Shown here: one piece after another, positions 26,252-32,642 of the stretch
How the letters are laid out: each line of letters begins with the position of its first letter
Position numbering within the stretch: position 1 is the first letter of the stretch
Virus record (IMG/VR): IMGVR_UViG_3300046058_000002
Coordinates: 1 to 32,642 of that record
Reading direction: 5' to 3' (one strand)
Length of the DNA: 32,642 nucleotides
DNA from: a virus
Taxonomy: Duplodnaviria; Caudoviricetes
Notes under the pieces: model-generated
Database searches by the model: none
Seen by the model: only the letters and a program-made list of their open reading frames with translations
Told to the model about the DNA's origin: nothing
Program-made: the position numbers and the translations under genes

Positions 26252-26520
26252 TTTCGAACTAAGAACGAGGACGGTCTGTCGTGGTTGTCCTTGGGGACCG
26301 CGACCGACGCCGGAGGAATCGACCGTTCCGGCTTGAACTGGTAGTGAAGACCGCCGATGAAACCCACCAGCGGCCGCCCGAAGCGTTCTTCCAACGCTTC
26401 AAGCATATCGTAGTCCATGATGGCTTCTTCGTCGTCGTAGGTGATTACCTCGGCGTTGTGAACCATGTCGTAGCCTGCCGAGAACGATTCCGTAACTGGA
26501 TTGAAGTCGGTTTCAGCCAT
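26248..26520 (-). CDS. Hypothetical protein (MAETDFNP..., 90 aa)
   Basis: Track ORF 26248..26592 restarted at ATG 26520, overlapping the upstream stop. Confidence 0.7.
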   Translation of the reverse strand: MAETDFNPVTESFSAGYDMVHNAEVITYDDEEAIMDYDMLEALEERFGRPLVGFIGGLHYQFKPERSIPPASVAVPKDNHDRPSSFLVRK

Positions 26521-27319
26521 CGTTGTCTTTGAATCTGTCGGGGTCGTAGTCCTCGTCGGACTCCTCAACCGCCTCAGTGGCGATTTCCGCAACGGCTTCG
26601 TTGGCGGACGCCTCGCTTTCGAGGGTGTCCATCTTCTGCCGCTCCTTGGGAGTCAGTCCCAACTCTTTCATTTGGTTGGTGACTTCCGACATCAGCAGTC
26701 GGTACTCTCGCGAGAGCGGGTTCTCGGCGTCCTTATAGCCGACTTCGACGCCCTGCTCGTCAAAGACAGGCTCGTCGTGAACCTCATGGTTGTCGAGGTA
26801 GTCCTCCTCGCGGAGAGCGCGTACCTCGTTGACGGCGACACGGCGGAGAATCCGGTATCGCGCCGGGTCCTCCGACCTGTCGGGCCAGTTATAGATGTCC
26901 GGCCAGTCCTCCATGATTTCATCATAAAGGTCTTGCTCGTGTTCGTCAAAATCCATGATTAAGTGTTCGTCGTCAGCGTAAGCGCCGTGCTTGATACCCG
27001 CCGTGAGCGGGTTCTCCAGCTTATCCTTGTGCTTGTGACCCTGCTTCTCTACGTCGCCGCCGTGGAAGGGACAGCAGACCGCGTAGGCGGCCTTATCGGT
27101 TCCCTCACCCTCGTAGTCATCCTCATCCTTCTTCGCGGCGCGTCTCTTACAAAAACGCTGAGGTCCGTCGTACTCGTCAGGTTGTTTTCCGATAGGGTTC
27201 AGGCAGTACGCAACCTCGAACGGAATGTCATGTTCGAGATACCGGGGAGTGTTGTAATATTCTCCCTCAAGCTCGCGCAATTCCGACGGGGAAGCCCCAG
27301 TAAGTTCTCCAGCGGCCAT
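26513..27319 (-). CDS. Putative terminase small subunit
   Basis: First gene of the morphogenesis operon; C..FC...CPFHGG zinc-like motif, GIKHGAYA, and ENPL...ELGLTPKER (P27-like TerS C-terminus). Confidence 0.75.
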   Translation of the reverse strand: MAAGELTGASPSELRELEGEYYNTPRYLEHDIPFEVAYCLNPIGKQPDEYDGPQRFCKRRAAKKDEDDYEGEGTDKAAYAVCCPFHGGDVEKQGHKHKDKLENPLTAGIKHGAYADDEHLIMDFDEHEQDLYDEIMEDWPDIYNWPDRSEDPARYRILRRVAVNEVRALREEDYLDNHEVHDEPVFDEQGVEVGYKDAENPLSREYRLLMSEVTNQMKELGLTPKERQKMDTLESEASANEAVAEIATEAVEESDEDYDPDRFKDNDG

Positions 27320-27369: not shown

Positions 27370-28605
27370 GCTGTTGGTGTACTGCTGTATAGTCTAAGGT
27401 ACTGTCCTACTGTAAAGCTCCCAAAGTAGGACTATAACAATGTCCCCATACAGGGGCGCACGTCAACTGACTTCATCAGTGAAGCCAGCTTCCTCACTAC
27501 AATGAAAGGACAATAGTTTATATACCGTGGGGGGTGGTGAAGTCAGCCCCGTCAGGCTATTCAGCAACGCCGGTCATGAAGCGGAGAAGGTCGGCAGTTT
27601 TGTCACTATGCGCGCTTTCCAACTGTTCGACTTCGGCGATGGTTTCCGCGATAACGTCGCGGTCGTGTTCTTCACGAAGCTCTATGCCTGCGTCACGGAG
27701 TTGTTCGGGCAGTGATTGCTCCACAGGTGATATACGCGCTCTGATGACTTAAAAATGGGGCAAAAATCGGGGTGTTGTCATATCCAGTTGGGCATGAAAT
27801 GACCCCCCACCCCGTCGAAATCTGACTGAGAGCCGTCTGCAATGTACGTCGGGTTACTAAACTCGCGCGCGCCTCCCCGGTCTGATGTAATAACCCCCTG
27901 ATTTCCCTGACTTCACGCCCGTATGCCCCCATATCACGTCACATACACTTGACTTCATGCCACACTATCGCATGACGTGAAATATGGGGCACGCCCCCGG
28001 TTTCGGCGTATCTGTCCATATCGGCACGTTCACACTCCCAATGAGTCCATATTCAGCGTGTCCCCGGTCACTTCACCCTCGTTTTCCTGTCAGCATCCCG
28101 AATTTGCCGGATATTCCCGGCCTTATCGGTGTCAAAAGAGGTATTAGCAGGTTATTTGACCCTGAAATGAAGTCTATATCAGCCATATTCACCGGAAAAC
28201 ACCCCCCTGATTTCACCATCCAAGGCCCCCGGTTCACGAGGGGGGTGTGACTTCAGAATTTTGGAAGCTCAGCTACCTTAGCTCCGGGTTCTGTCCTCAA
28301 CTGTTGGCCCGCAGATTTCAGCAGTTCTGGCAGTAGCGTCTCTCTCCTCGGTCTAATCCTCTGCTTTTGGCTCACCTAACTCTCAAATCGGGGGGTTTGC
28401 CTCGATAAGCCCCGTTTTCTCCGGTTTCTGGACATCTCAGTATGCTCTACTCCCTGCTTAGGACGTTTGAGTATGGATTGTTACGTCATGTTCTACCTGC
28501 AAATATACCCCGTCTACCCTTATGGATAATCGGCTTTCATACCGCGCCACGGGGTTCCCGCCCGCATAATGCGCCGCGAACCCCGGCCGCGACGGTATCG
28601 GTAGA

Positions 28606-28612
28606 TTTATAT
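28606..28612 (+). promoter_or_regulatory. Archaeal TATA box for a leaderless transcript
   Basis: TTTATAT about 27-33 nt upstream of ATG 28639. Confidence 0.65.
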
Positions 28613-28638
28613 GATACCTCGGTCAATGGTCAGTTGCA

Positions 28639-29403
28639 ATGTCGAACCAAACCGAAGTTGCGACGAAGGTCGAAGAGCTTTCAACTACGTTGAACGTTGA
28701 TGTCGAAGACATCACCATCTCCATCGAAGATGGAGGACTCAGAGAGACTGTCATCAGCGGAGCTGATGTGGCAGAGTACCTCACCGAAGGTGAGGACGAA
28801 TCTGAGGACACCAGCGAAGCTGGTGAGGAGGACGAGGACATCAGCGAAGCTGATGAGGACACCACCGAAGGTGGTGAGGTGCATCTCGAAGAGATGGAGT
28901 ACAACGACCTGTTGGCTCTCATCAGCGAAGCTGATGTGGACTACCCCGAAGATTCCAGCAAAGCTGGACTCCTCGAAGCGGCAGAAGACATCGAAGATGT
29001 CAGCACCGTCATCGAAGATGACGAGGACATCAGCGAAGCTGATGAGGATGTCACCGAAGGTGACGATGACGAAGACACCATCGAAGATGGTGAGAACGAA
29101 GAAGACAGCATCTCCGATGCTGAACTGGTCGAAGCCGGAGTGAAGGAGTCTAACATCGAAGATGTTAGGAAGTACCGTTCGAAGAACGGTGTCTGCTCCG
29201 AGGAAAACTGCCCCTACGGGGCAAATAACGGCGAGGAGTTCTGTGCTTCCCATCAAGGAAGCAGTTCGAAGTCGAAGACTTCGACGGATTCCCCGAAGGG
29301 GAACCGGGAACTCTCCGACCTCAGCGAAGCTGAGCAGAACCTCGTTTCCTCCCTCATCGGAGATGAGGGGAAGAGCCTCGAAGAGGCTATCAGCATGGTG
29401 TGA
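28639..29403 (+). CDS. Very acidic protein with a HeH/Rho-N-like segment and a C3H zinc-finger-like motif
   Basis: LEEMEYNDLLALISEADVDYPEDSSKAGLLEA; CSEENCPYGANNGEEFCASH; EDISEADED duplicated; TATA box upstream. Confidence 0.75.
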   Translation: MSNQTEVATKVEELSTTLNVDVEDITISIEDGGLRETVISGADVAEYLTEGEDESEDTSEAGEEDEDISEADEDTTEGGEVHLEEMEYNDLLALISEADVDYPEDSSKAGLLEAAEDIEDVSTVIEDDEDISEADEDVTEGDDDEDTIEDGENEEDSISDAELVEAGVKESNIEDVRKYRSKNGVCSEENCPYGANNGEEFCASHQGSSSKSKTSTDSPKGNRELSDLSEAEQNLVSSLIGDEGKSLEEAISMV

Positions 29404-29531
29404 AGTCGTAGACTTCAAACACTCAAAGTCATAGACTTTGAATCTTATCACAAAGTGATACCGATGCCAATGACCACCTTCGGTGGTGACGGTCAGGCTT
29501 CGGCTTCGAAGAAGCCGGGACACAACTGACA

Positions 29532-29927
29532 ATGACCGACGAAGCCAACATCGAAGATGTTGCATCGACAGCAAATGACTTTAGCGAAGCTACCTCCGAA
29601 GAGGTTCAAAGGGCCGCTTTCGAAGAAAGCGATACCCCAACCAGCCTAATGGCTGGTGTCGAAGACCACGGCATCGGAGATGCCGATACCGTCAAAGGCC
29701 AAGCAAGGAGAGCCGAAGAGGTTCATCTCGAAGAGATGAGGGAAGACAGCGATAAGGTCGAAGGGTGGGATACCCCGGAGGTCGAAGACCTCGAACCCCT
29801 CCCGACTCCCAGCGAAGCTGAACTCGGGGAACTCTGCCGAGTTCCCGAAACCCAGTTCGAAGAACTGGAGCTTGTCGATAACGACACTCCGGCCCTTATC
29901 GGAGTCCTCGAAGAGGAGGGTCGGTAA
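29532..29927 (+). CDS. Acidic hypothetical protein (131 aa)
   Basis: ORF track; D/E-rich; the next ATG lies 1 nt after its stop. Confidence 0.7.
   Translation: MTDEANIEDVASTANDFSEATSEEVQRAAFEESDTPTSLMAGVEDHGIGDADTVKGQARRAEEVHLEEMREDSDKVEGWDTPEVEDLEPLPTPSEAELGELCRVPETQFEELELVDNDTPALIGVLEEEGR
29746..29759. repeat. 14-mer ACAGCGATAAGGTC, copy 4 (inside a CDS)
   Basis: Exact match. Confidence 0.8.
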
Positions 29928-29928
29928 G

Positions 29929-30174
29929 ATGTCCGACTCCGAAGGAGTCGAGAGCTACCCCCCGAAGGGGAACGGTCCCTTCGATTCAAGAGCCGAAGAG
30001 GCTATCGACTGGTATCAGCATTATATGGCTGTCGAGGTCGAAGACCTCGCTCTGGAGTACATCTCGAAGAAGGGGTCCGAAGGACCCGACCCATCTCCGA
30101 TGATGGAGAAGGCCGTCGAAGCTCGCTTCGAAGAAGCGGGGGAAGCCCTCCTCGGAGAAGAGGTGAACCGATGA
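29929..30174 (+). CDS. Acidic hypothetical protein (81 aa, MSDSEGVE...)
   Basis: Restarted at ATG 29929 with GGAGG upstream; ATGA overlap with the next ORF. Confidence 0.7.
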   Translation: MSDSEGVESYPPKGNGPFDSRAEEAIDWYQHYMAVEVEDLALEYISKKGSEGPDPSPMMEKAVEARFEEAGEALLGEEVNR

Positions 30175-30338
30175 ACGACTCCGAAGGAGTTGAGATGCCC
30201 TTCAGGGACTTCAGCGAAGCTGAAGATGACGAAGACCACGAGGACTGGAAGTCCTCACAGAGTCCCGAAGGGACTGTCGAAGTCTCTTCAGGACTGAAGG
30301 CTTCGAGAGACAGTCCCTCGAAGAAGGGAGAACGATGA
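30171..30338 (+). CDS. Small acidic protein (55 aa, MNDSEGVE...)
   Basis: Translated by hand; GAGGTGA RBS; ATGA overlaps at both ends. Confidence 0.65.
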   Translation: MNDSEGVEMPFRDFSEAEDDEDHEDWKSSQSPEGTVEVSSGLKASRDSPSKKGER

Positions 30339-30607
30339 AGCTCGAAAAGAGCTTCGACCTCTGTCGGAAGGCAGAGGAATACGAGGCTTCGACTCACCTC
30401 ATCCAAAGGATGAGGGAGCGACCCCTCCTCGAAGCAGATGTCGTTATCGACATTATCGAAGATGGCGACATCGTAGATGTCGATAGCAACGAAGGGGGTT
30501 CCGACCGATGTGTCACCCTTCGGGGTGACTGGTGCTTATCGACCTTCGAGGTCAAGCTCTGTCCGAAAGACAGGGTGGTCCAAACGGCCTATGAGGTCGA
30601 AGAATGA
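30335..30607 (+). CDS. DUF4258-like (RelE/BrnT-related) putative ribonuclease
   Basis: STHLIQRMRER...IIEDGDIV...VVQTAY matches the family pattern as I recall it. Confidence 0.65.
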   Translation: MKLEKSFDLCRKAEEYEASTHLIQRMRERPLLEADVVIDIIEDGDIVDVDSNEGGSDRCVTLRGDWCLSTFEVKLCPKDRVVQTAYEVEE

Positions 30608-30678
30608 TAGAAGCGATTTGGGTCCTCATCTTAACCCCCCTTGGGGTCTTCTGGACCTTTTCGGTGGTGCGATTCTGA
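30604..30678 (+). CDS. 24-aa hydrophobic membrane peptide
   Basis: MIEAIWVLILTPLGVFWTFSVVRF; GAGGT upstream; ATGA overlap. Confidence 0.45.
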   Translation: MIEAIWVLILTPLGVFWTFSVVRF

Positions 30679-30728
30679 CCCTTCGGCAGCAAAGACTCGA
30701 AGTGAGGCGCTTCGAATCCTAACCAGCT

Positions 30729-30771
30729 TTCTTCACCTCATAAGAGGTGAAGAAGGTCGGTTTTTTTTTTT
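30729..30771 (+). terminator. Hairpin plus T11 terminator
   Basis: TTCTTCACCTC-ATAA-GAGGTGAAGAA (11 bp), then a T run at 30761-30771, at the end of the operon. Confidence 0.75.
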
Positions 30772-31014
30772 CGCGCCCGCGCGGCAATTAATCGCGGGGG
30801 AATTAATAATGCGCTTTAAAAGCCGAAGGCTTTTCGCGCGAGCGAATTGGAATTGCCGCGCGAATTGCAATTGGCGAGCGTTAAGTGAATTAAGACGCGC
30901 GAGCCACCCCTTACGGGGTTCTAATGGGTTATGATTACCCTCCGGGGAAGGGAACCGCGAGGGACCCCGAAGGGAGGTCGCGCGGCTTCTTTCTTCGAAC
31001 GAAATTACTGTTAA

Positions 31015-31028: not shown

Positions 31029-32642
31029 GGCGGGGTTTTACTTAGAAGGAGGGAGGGTCCCTTAGTTAATTATTAGAAGGACCCCCTCCAGTCTTAATCG
31101 CGGGCGCGAAGGGTCGAGATTGGCTTTCTTCAATGCTCAAATCTCTGGAATTTGGCGATATTGAGAGATTTCCATGGATAAAGGCAAATCCCTCAGACTG
31201 TCGATTTCCCTACTCAGCGTCGGCCTCGCCGTCGATTTCTATTTTCCTCAAGATTTGCTTTTGGTTGTCGCAAAGATTGCCTGTATCAAACCCTACTGGA
31301 TAATCTCCTTGACAGATGGCTCATCGTCGGCTTTCGGCAGTATCAGCATAGCTAGCGTCGATTTCTCTACTCCCACCTGACTCCGACAGATATATATGGT
31401 ACCTCGGTCTATGGTGATACAGGTCGCTCGCACACAAGTTCTCCTCGTCCACACACACACGCGATGTGTTGTGCTGGACGGGGGGACCCCTCATCCCGCG
31501 TTTATTAAAGGGGTGAGAGGGGGCCTTTGGGGGCTTTAAGCCCTCGCACGATGACACCTTCGCCCCCTAAGGGAGTTCCCTTTAAGGGCGAAGCCCAAAT
31601 GGTTGCCTTCGGTTGTCCTGACCCCTTACGGGTCGAAGACGTTTTCAAGGGGCGTAAGAAGGCTTCGCGGGACGGTTAAAGTGCGCCTCCCTTAAGGGAG
31701 GACGTGTCAGTAGCCGCCGAATATCCAAAGGCGTTCGAAGGGGAGTTCCCCCGAAGGTTAAACGCCGAGTTCGACCCGACACCCTTCGTGTTTGTAAATT
31801 CATGTCGCGGTCTTCGGAAGAAGCCGCACCGAGGCGAGTTCACTCCTTAAGGGGTGAACATCGACCCGATGACGGAAGGTTCGGACCCTCGAAGAATTCC
31901 TTCGAGCTACGTTAACGGCATAGAGGGATTACAGCCCGGTAGGGCTGAACGCCCCATTAAGGACCTCACGAGGTCTAAGACTCGAAGCTCAACGCTAAGA
32001 TTCTTAGGCTTCTTAAGGGCATCGCCAGCCACACTTCCACCGAAAAGTGAGGCGGTAGAAACCTTCGAAGGGATTTATTAGAACCCTCGAAGGGGACCCG
32101 AAGTAGTGATTCAGGAGGTTCACACCCTTCGACCTCTTGAAAGCTCACGAAGACCGACCGACTTAGGAGGGTCACGATGACACCGTGACAGAGCCAAAGA
32201 CAGCCACGGAAAACCGGACGAAGAAGCTTTGAGCAAAGGCTCCGAGAGGGGTTCCGGCTCGAAGTGGAGTTACGGGGCAAATGCGACTCGAAGAGTGTTC
32301 CTCGAAGAGTTCTAAGACGACTGGCGTAACGGGGTTTCACCCCTCGAAGAGTTCCTTCGGGGTGGAGCGTTGTAAGGAACGGCCTTCGCTTCGGACTACA
32401 AAAGAAGCAAACGAGGAAGCCGAGAGACAGCTTCCAGCCCTTAAGGCGATGAAGTCACGCAACTGGCGAAGCCAAGAGACAGCCGACCCGGTTAGGGTCG
32501 AAGGTGGATTTATACGGCCTTCGACCCCCGGACCCGACCCTTCTCTTCGGGAAACAACAGGGAACGAGAAGTCACTCTGCGAAGTGAGTGACACAACCTT
32601 CCGACAAATGTCTGGATTCGACCTTAGCGACTCGATAGCGGC

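Follow-up and report, generated by a model that had tools for sequence, protein, structure and literature searches.

What is a run of several dozen short palindromes doing in the first genes of a tailed virus? The question is raised by a 32,642-nt stretch of viral DNA (the window), in which an acidic 254-aa protein gene (gene 1; 28639..29403, plus strand) and the four open reading frames (ORFs) behind it are filled with perfect inverted repeats that have 3-nt loops. The original prediction, made from the letters alone, had listed 43 of these mini-hairpins, and an exhaustive scan of the whole window (arms of at least 6 bp, loop of 3 nt) recovered 43 of the 43 start coordinates. The scan yielded 63 perfect repeats, 47 of them in kilobase bins 28–30 and 16 scattered across the first 28 kb; those beyond the original 43 include 29271 (overlapping), 30240 (T-A closed), 30397, and 30818, and additional hairpins with 5-bp arms occur at 29905 and 30178. 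Triloops closed by a C-G pair number 45 in the array kilobases and 5 in the first 28 kb, which bears out the earlier remark that nothing comparable occurs there and means that hairpin density is not equal across the window. We refer to the 45 C-G-closed perfect triloop repeats with arms of 6–8 bp at 28680..30834 as the mini-hairpin lattice, and we assign it to neither strand. Its onset is sharp at the gene 1 ATG, its density is 7–9 per 250 nt in the first kilobase and 1–2 per 250 nt by +2 kb, and at about that distance it is gone. No C-G-closed triloop hairpins are found in the 1250 nt upstream of the gene 1 ATG in either the window or a relative, G002, and the late structural genes show no hairpin excess.

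The array count exceeds expectation under four null models. Between 28680 and 30482 there are 46 hairpins; 1000 dinucleotide shuffles of this region averaged 0.65 and never exceeded 5. Gene 1 holds 26, as compared with 2.41±1.40 (maximum 8) in 1000 within-gene synonymous shuffles and 0.61 when it is resampled with the codon usage of 28 other ORFs in the window; the same protein, recoded by shuffling, thus does not give a similar count. The four downstream ORFs hold 6, 4, 3, and 2 hairpins, where 0.3–0.7 are expected in each. Most gene 1 loops are GAA, and in 22 of the 26 hairpins the loop is an in-frame codon. The description of the stems as unrelated holds in part: most differ, but CATCAGC occurs four times in gene 1, and 203 hairpins from six arrays contain 116 distinct inner 6-mers. 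Many of the recurring stems correspond to reused peptide words (TEG, IED, SEA).

The window also has genes for DNA polymerase and RtcB, for a myovirus tail, capsid, and portal, and for the two subunits of the terminase. With a TerL 47% identical to proteins of the HF1/HF2 group and a capsid protein 56% identical to that of HSTV-2, the virus classifies by sequence as a Hafunaviridae-like halovirus. In three near-complete relatives (G001, G002, and G005) and in the cultured HSTV-2, the array is confined to this genome end, and it is also carried by HRTV-7, HRTV-11, and HCTV-6. Gene 1 or its equivalent contains 26 hairpins in the window, 20 in G001, 23 in G002, 23 in G005, 17 in HSTV-2, and 14 in HRTV-11, as compared with 1.1–2.6 after 200 synonymous shuffles of each. 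In the HF2 group, first genes have a slight excess (HF2, 5; HRTV-8, 4; Serpecor1, 3; HRTV-5, 2; 0.3–0.5 expected). Upstream of terS, the distantly hafunavirus-like loci L471 and L478 lack an array. HSTV-2 gene 104 resembles gene 1 only weakly (nine-protein search, E 4.5e-4). The trait is graded among relatives and tracks position more than gene.

Comparison of these genomes indicates that pairing is retained while the letters change. Six pairwise alignments of four genomes, which are not independent of one another, made 132 hairpins alignable and left 41 that were not. Among the 132, 86 retain six of six pairs, 4 retain five of six, and the remainder are lost or misaligned; 110 base pairs are altered on both sides and still paired. 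Single-mismatch internal intermediates number only 12. In a cleanly aligned block of three hairpins, 76 of 76 cells are paired, with four two-sided and no one-sided changes, a level reached by 1 of 500 shuffles. Three hairpins at the gene 1 stop and in the spacer behind it (29401..29460, no strand assigned) occupy the same place in five of five aligned genomes with differing stems and flipped loops (the third has a 5-bp stem in G001), and the stem of the one at the stop differs in each of the five. Between homologues, loops are exchanged among a few types, including the exact inversions GAA/TTC, GTA/TAC, and AAA/TTT, and non-coding hairpins covary too. The proposal that structure rather than sequence is conserved is thus upheld by the paired changes, the fully paired block, and the stop-site hairpin.

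The same hairpins indicate in which nucleic acid the structure is likely to form. Among the 203 hairpins from six arrays, the loop reads GNA on one strand in 153, ANA in 26, TNA in 8, and something else in 16; 180 are closed by C-G and 186 have arms of 6–8 bp. GNA is reported as the only extra-stable triloop among 64 tested in DNA, and GNA mini-hairpins resist exonuclease and bind single-strand-binding protein (SSB) poorly (PMC13037366). A C-G closing pair and the G and A loop bases are required for extrusion of the phage N4 promoter hairpins from supercoiled DNA (PMC4496689). Loop, closing pair, and arm statistics therefore agree with the suggested likeness to the DNA C(GNA)G mini-hairpin of N4 promoters. 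The halovirus loops lie on the plus strand in 101 in-frame cases and on the minus strand in 11, an apparent coding-strand bias that is due to glutamate codons, as the non-coding loops are balanced (12 plus, 11 minus); in 15 other arrays the counts are 230 plus and 196 minus. G-T pairs are not enriched, making up 1 of 12 internal mismatches in the six arrays, and in other phages there are 7 G-T/T-G and 8 A-C/C-A among 41. No Rfam match at E≤0.5 was found in four loci (L001, L003, L007, and L038). Paired changes, loop inversion, the absence of any favor for G-U, and the lack of strand bias outside glutamate codons together point to a structure at the DNA level that is indifferent to strand, like a cruciform. 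From sequence comparison we consider folding of the array as DNA highly probable, and the RNA device that had been offered as an option is disfavored by the G-T counts, the strand-balanced non-coding loops, and the Rfam result.

The array is not limited to the window virus or to haloviruses, as phages of non-halophiles carry arrays as well. A search pattern built from two hairpins of the window array gave 88 viral loci, 22 of which contain at least seven C-G-closed hairpins in one kilobase, and 20 of these are non-haloviral (duplicates included); because the pattern selects for such arrays, the 88-locus result gives no prevalence. By way of control, 120 metagenome motif loci, all apparently due to chance, had no more than two hairpins per kilobase, and thirteen named controls never had more than three (N4, T5, and MEP401 were partly covered, and ICBM2 was covered except for its last 0.9 kb). 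A triple CCGAAGG pattern was set aside as too loose, with 3 of 121 loci at seven or more per kilobase in 4 of 64 parts scanned. Of 19 array records, 17 were profiled (two in part), and each has one main block of 1–9 kb. The terL gene, located in 13 records, is no more than about 3 kb from the block in eight, at 5–9 kb in four, and at about 27 kb in G024. Terminases of array carriers fall into at least eight groups with mutual identity below 30% or no match, so the same layout recurs in unrelated phages. Hairpins covary in close pairs of these non-halovirus arrays, which in some phages pass through conserved AAA-ATPase genes, and the median unpaired gap between hairpins is 15–37 nt, as compared with 10–16 nt in haloviruses. 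No protein common to all array carriers was found. A CobS-like AAA ATPase is encoded in or just after the array in G007, G009, G012, G013, and G016, with a vWA-like partner in four of them; we rejected this ATPase as a shared hairpin reader, since it is present in five phage records and absent from five of five halovirus genomes. The cultured Zobellviridae related to G007 (ICBM2, ICP2, and MEP401) have no array, and no close cultured relative was found for three other array phages.

Spacing was examined in 17 arrays, using windows set by eye (that of G007 was mis-set), and is more even than random placement in seven. Helical phasing was not accepted, as peaks at 21–24 and 30–34 nt appear in five arrays from haloviruses (four being homologous) but not in 11 other arrays.

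The gene 1 protein may have been bent to fit the hairpins. In it, disordered linkers join small domains of helical type and a C-x4-C-x10/11-C-x2-H motif that is conserved. Databases contain 27 homologues, and none of the Pfam or PHROG families matched. Hairpin density peaks in the predicted disordered linkers, gene 1 contains internal repeats, and of the 96 to 576 synonymous ways to encode its common peptide words, only 2 preserve the hairpin: the linkers are built of peptide words dictated by hairpins. The structural model (predicted template modeling score 0.24) gave no fold match at Z≥5, and there is no solved relative. In this low-confidence model, residues 80–123, a variable domain, are weakly SAP/HeH-like (Z 3.3–4.4), and gene 1 may perhaps carry nucleic-acid-binding modules. 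As a single-protein query against viral contigs, gene 1 had no match; the gene 1 alignment used as a query returned six loci, all known beforehand, and metagenome scans for relatives gave 147 candidates, none of which was confirmed.

The position of the array is consistent with the early, terminal location originally proposed. It sits just beyond the terminase small subunit gene, terS (26513..27319, minus strand; phrog_9231, E 2.6e-65), which is the first gene of the packaging and structural operon and marks the junction; the array begins the operon that diverges from it. Between the two lies a likely terminal direct repeat and genome end (27928..28293, no strand assigned) that has no triloop hairpins. 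Across it, a related strain's contig has a depth of 12.4 as compared with 4.7–6.7 for its neighbors in public run X2, and of 10.9 as compared with 3.3–6.5 in run X3, and this roughly twofold depth in two runs is a weak hint of a terminal repeat. HSTV-2 has a 340-bp terminal repeat at the equivalent place, 280 bp from the last gene, and its array lies 280 bp inward of that repeat; in the window the gene 1 ATG, and with it the array, starts about 345 bp inward of the likely repeat. In HF2, the equivalent genome end is transcribed first (PMC7230728). A TATA-like box (28606..28613, plus strand), with the array beginning just after it, has counterparts in relatives, and its distance of 26–33 nt from the gene 1 ATG makes it likely a leaderless promoter for the host polymerase. 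A sigma-70 promoter scan was set aside as unsuited to archaea.

The lattice through the first early operon is kept as base pairing, and we consider it likely that it forms mini-cruciforms of the N4 type in the viral DNA when this operon is first transcribed. The array-bearing genome end would enter the cell first. Host RNA polymerase would then open and under-wind the DNA and hairpins would extrude on either strand, and the roughly 12 unpaired bases between them would offer no foothold for R-loops or for single-strand-binding, recombination, nuclease, or spacer-capture proteins. The first genes would thus be protected before the virus has any counter-defense. Template switching or repair in the folded state may copy one arm onto the other, which would explain the paired changes. 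On present sequence comparisons we lean towards an adaptive array, while its protective role, in which transcription-linked mini-cruciforms keep R-loops, single-strand-binding, and defense proteins off the first operon, is proposed tentatively. An earlier suggestion, that the hairpins shield the DNA end, is disfavored: such armor is unlikely, given that no such hairpins are found in the terminal repeat or in the next 345 bp, both within the 1250 nt before the ATG. In a broader form, which we regard as possible and somewhat short of an even chance, tailed viruses of archaea and bacteria may have repeatedly evolved a structure-only second code at the leading genome end. Early-gene kilobases would be tiled with extrusion-competent mini-hairpins that make fresh DNA unreadable to host single-strand sensors, nucleases, and guide acquisition, with the protein bent to fit.

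Several observations weigh against this reading. At conserved residues, synonymous differences are seen in 110 of 421 cases within stems and in 143 of 482 elsewhere, with p<0.05 in only one of seven pairs, and rates that are alike inside and outside stems suggest little purifying selection on stem sequence. Stems that change at near-normal speed, but in pairs, point to a copying step such as template switching; such copying suggests that hairpins do form in DNA, and it also keeps a non-adaptive origin alive. The spacing is not regular in 10 of the 17 arrays (G007 among these), and the G024 array is remote from terL. The original prediction had asked whether homologues keep the protein without the stems, and in part they do: 4 of 10 gene 1 homologues are nearly free of triloops (L008, 1; G003, 2; L005, 0; L010, 1) and others carry the array. 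Together with the low counts of 2–5 in HF2-group first genes, this makes the dense array dispensable across the family. A free linear end should release negative supercoils. Finally, hairpins in displaced single-stranded DNA (ssDNA) may feed rather than block type III spacer capture (PMC13575424).

The copying step is the whole explanation in a non-adaptive alternative, a live rival that we judge less likely than our own reading: the first transcription unit would be a hot zone for template switching at quasi-palindromes, where C-GNA-G cores fold back during DNA synthesis, arm is copied to arm, and the array accrues where the protein tolerates it. This accounts for stems that diverge at a near-background synonymous rate and yet in pairs, several pairs at once and with exact loop inversions, and for an array that begins at the transcription start, decays with distance, is densest in predicted disordered linkers, and is graded among relatives. 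The all-or-none pattern expected of it is seen in the 86 of 132 hairpins at six of six and 4 at five of six and in the spacer inversions, and quasi-palindrome mutation is transcription-dependent in yeast (PMC3820800). What speaks for selection instead is that arms are held tightly to 6–8 bp with few mismatched intermediates, that late structural genes show no excess, that spacing is under-dispersed in 7 of 17 arrays, that arrays cross conserved ATPase genes, and that stems are less divergent at all sites in two close pairs (0.07 as compared with 0.18, and 0.03 as compared with 0.13). Our reading of the array as selected DNA structure also has to be set against a replication or end-processing zone, in which transcription from the first promoter, or a nick at the border of the terminal repeat, displaces a strand whose hairpins exclude SSB or replication protein A and provide redundant landing sites for primase, helicase, or resolvase. 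Mini-hairpins, which are poor SSB binders, are found at the G4, St-1, and alpha3 origins and at RSF1010 ssiA (PMC13037366); a putative replication nick is marked at the inner border of the repeat in the HF2 record; and the possible nucleic-acid-binding modules of gene 1 would fit. However, known signals consist of 1–3 hairpins with fixed flanks rather than 25–60 with variable stems, a displaced strand should give a strand bias that is not seen, and array phages differ in primase and polymerase types, so that we consider this role unlikely.

Less probable again is a role in the mRNA, acting against backtracking, R-loops, termination factors, or RNases, with DNA-type loops that reflect origin only. 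The array is restricted to transcribed DNA, hairpins cover about 55% of gene 1 and are present in its RNA minimum-energy fold, HSTV-2 has some GTAA tetraloops besides triloops, and two single changes in HRTV-11 yield G-U; yet there is no G-U excess, bulges are nearly absent, triloops stand in place of GNRA/UUCG tetraloops, loops invert between homologues, and the four loci searched have no Rfam match. N4-like promoters for a virion RNA polymerase would explain the stem length, closing pair, loop, and genome end, but this explanation is largely refuted and, in our view, very improbable. No match to the N4 virion RNA polymerase was found (tblastn, E≤0.01, window and 21 records), and the longest ORF is 914–940 aa in G001, G002, G005, and HSTV-2. 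No T7-type polymerase (PF00940, a profile that detects N4 RNAPII and not the virion enzyme) was found in G001, G002, G007, or HSTV-2, and the hairpins are intragenic, follow a TATA box, and mostly carry the GNA loop on the non-template strand. The in-frame, mostly GAA loops and internal repeats of gene 1 could also suggest a low-complexity artefact of an acidic protein rich in GAA and GAY codons. This is refuted by the synonymous shuffles (2.4 hairpins as compared with 26) and is contradicted by covarying non-coding hairpins, by equally acidic homologues and neighbors without an array, and by the arrays of non-halophile phages, leaving it with a negligible probability.

The remaining ORFs of the first operon are all on the plus strand. 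ORF 2 (29532..29927; 131 aa, six hairpins) has no assigned function and is followed by ORF 3 (29929..30174; 81 aa, four hairpins), ORF 4 (30171..30338; 55 aa, three hairpins), and ORF 5 (30335..30607; 90 aa, two hairpins). ORF 5 is DUF4258-like (E 7e-5, below the curated cut-off) and is present in five of five IMG/VR relatives, but was not detected in HF2, HSTV-2, HRTV-5, or HRTV-7. We take the DUF4258 nuclease to have a RelE-like fold; the idea that the array gives self-protection from it was rejected, as HSTV-2 has the array without a detected copy and G003 has the gene without the array. A stem-loop with a T run (30726..30767, plus strand) resembles a terminator and likely ends the operon. 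Between gene 1 and ORF 2, a possible 21-codon micro-ORF (29464-29529) starts with MPMTTFGGDG, a beginning shared by longer ORFs in L005, L009, and G005.

Other observations concern array-poor relatives and the rest of the window. The gene 1 homologue in L008 (722-1312, minus strand) contains, instead of triloops, seven same-orientation copies of a fixed motif encoding the peptide SNSSAV; the copies sit at the tips of longer imperfect stems whose arms vary together, and P0021 shares the peptide repeat. Two other array-poor homologues (L009:5659-6699 and L005:978-1808) have 2–4 hairpins of the CCCG-GATG-CGGG type with loops of 4–5 nt, which occur in both orientations in G003. In the window, short GACTTCA/ATTTCA and CCCCTGA repeats at 27880-28260 are like those of the HSTV-2 terminal repeat and are possible terminase sites. 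Downstream of a copy of the gene 1 promoter motif (about 31390-31420), the plus strand has no ORF longer than 75 aa for more than 1.2 kb (region 31390-32642). Within this region, which may hold a conserved non-coding RNA or origin, 32144-32273 is 72% like HSTV-2 65466-65595; no Rfam match was found in the loci scanned. Palindromic restriction-like sites are strongly avoided in positions 1-28000 (GATC and CTAG occur once each, and many 6-mers are absent). TTCGAA occurs 18 times there, though it is reported absent from HF1-group isolates.

Among known systems, clusters of short DNA hairpins are familiar from repetitive extragenic palindromes and their mosaic elements (REP/BIME) and from IS200/IS605 ends, which form sequence families, are intergenic, and are tied to a Y1 transposase. 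The array shares the clustering but has diverse stems (116 distinct among 203 hairpins) and lies mostly in coding sequence, and the Y1 HUH transposase (PF01797) was found in none of five array genomes and in 6 of 14 controls. Loop inversion is a signature of quasi-palindrome template switching, a process that acts at isolated sites, whereas the window array tiles a defined region, and we know of no report of such mutagenesis tiling a defined viral region with uniform 6–8 bp stems. The process resembles the array further in perfecting inverted repeats, in paired multi-base changes, and in its dependence on transcription (PMC3820800). PeSL-like promoter stem-loops of T4-type phages and of the halovirus HGTV-1 are likewise inverted repeats tied to early viral genes but consist of one conserved motif before each gene, unlike the variable in-gene lattice described here (PMC3950731). 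HGTV-1 has no triloop array; a fixed-sequence hairpin, CTCCTCGT-GCC, is repeated there (HGTV-1, L451-L452), with five copies in the last 14 kb. Arrays of structured RNA would differ in loop orientation, G-T content, and Rfam membership: here loops invert between homologues, G-T is not enriched, and no family matches.

The closest likenesses are to single DNA hairpins. Those of the N4 early promoters have the same short stem, C-G closing pair, G-N-A loop, and location at the early end of a linear genome, features that permit extrusion at a superhelical density of -0.035 (PMC4496689). They are few, however, lie upstream of starts on the template strand, have conserved contact bases, and serve a 3500-aa polymerase, whereas here 25–60 hairpins lie within genes, on either strand, with variable stems; N4's own genome ends, as far as covered, have no array. 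The priming hairpins of G4, St-1, alpha3, and RSF1010 ssiA share the extra-stable GNA/GNNA design, including CCGAAGG, and poor SSB binding (PMC13037366). They are single signals in known ssDNA intermediates, in contrast to a kilobase-scale lattice in coding double-stranded DNA, and where a primase signal has one cluster and a fixed flanking priming sequence, the window has 45 hairpins whose stems and flanks vary.

No description of such arrays was found in the literature surveyed (supplements and most subscription papers were outside its scope), and in two papers on halovirus genomes and one on host range, the available text mentions palindrome avoidance or terminal repeats and not a hairpin array. 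The single hairpin is known, and the lattice does not fit fully into any family considered. In its available text, a January 2026 review of mini-hairpin DNA names only three natural roles, namely G4-type origins, RSF1010 ssiA, and N4 promoters (PMC13037366); here the same motif spans entire early operons, both in a family of archaeal viruses and in viruses whose terminases form at least eight unrelated groups. If the array is adaptive, it would add an unrecognized layer of DNA structure, and a counter-defense that needs no protein, to the first minutes of infection; if not, it would mark a mutational process that is specific to this region and powerful enough to rewrite the linkers of a protein. 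Either outcome would be new. The array is carried by the cultured mincapviruses HSTV-2, HRTV-7, HRTV-11, and HCTV-6, of which HSTV-2 plates well on Haloferax gibbonsii LR2-5 (PMC9229481) and makes the idea directly testable.

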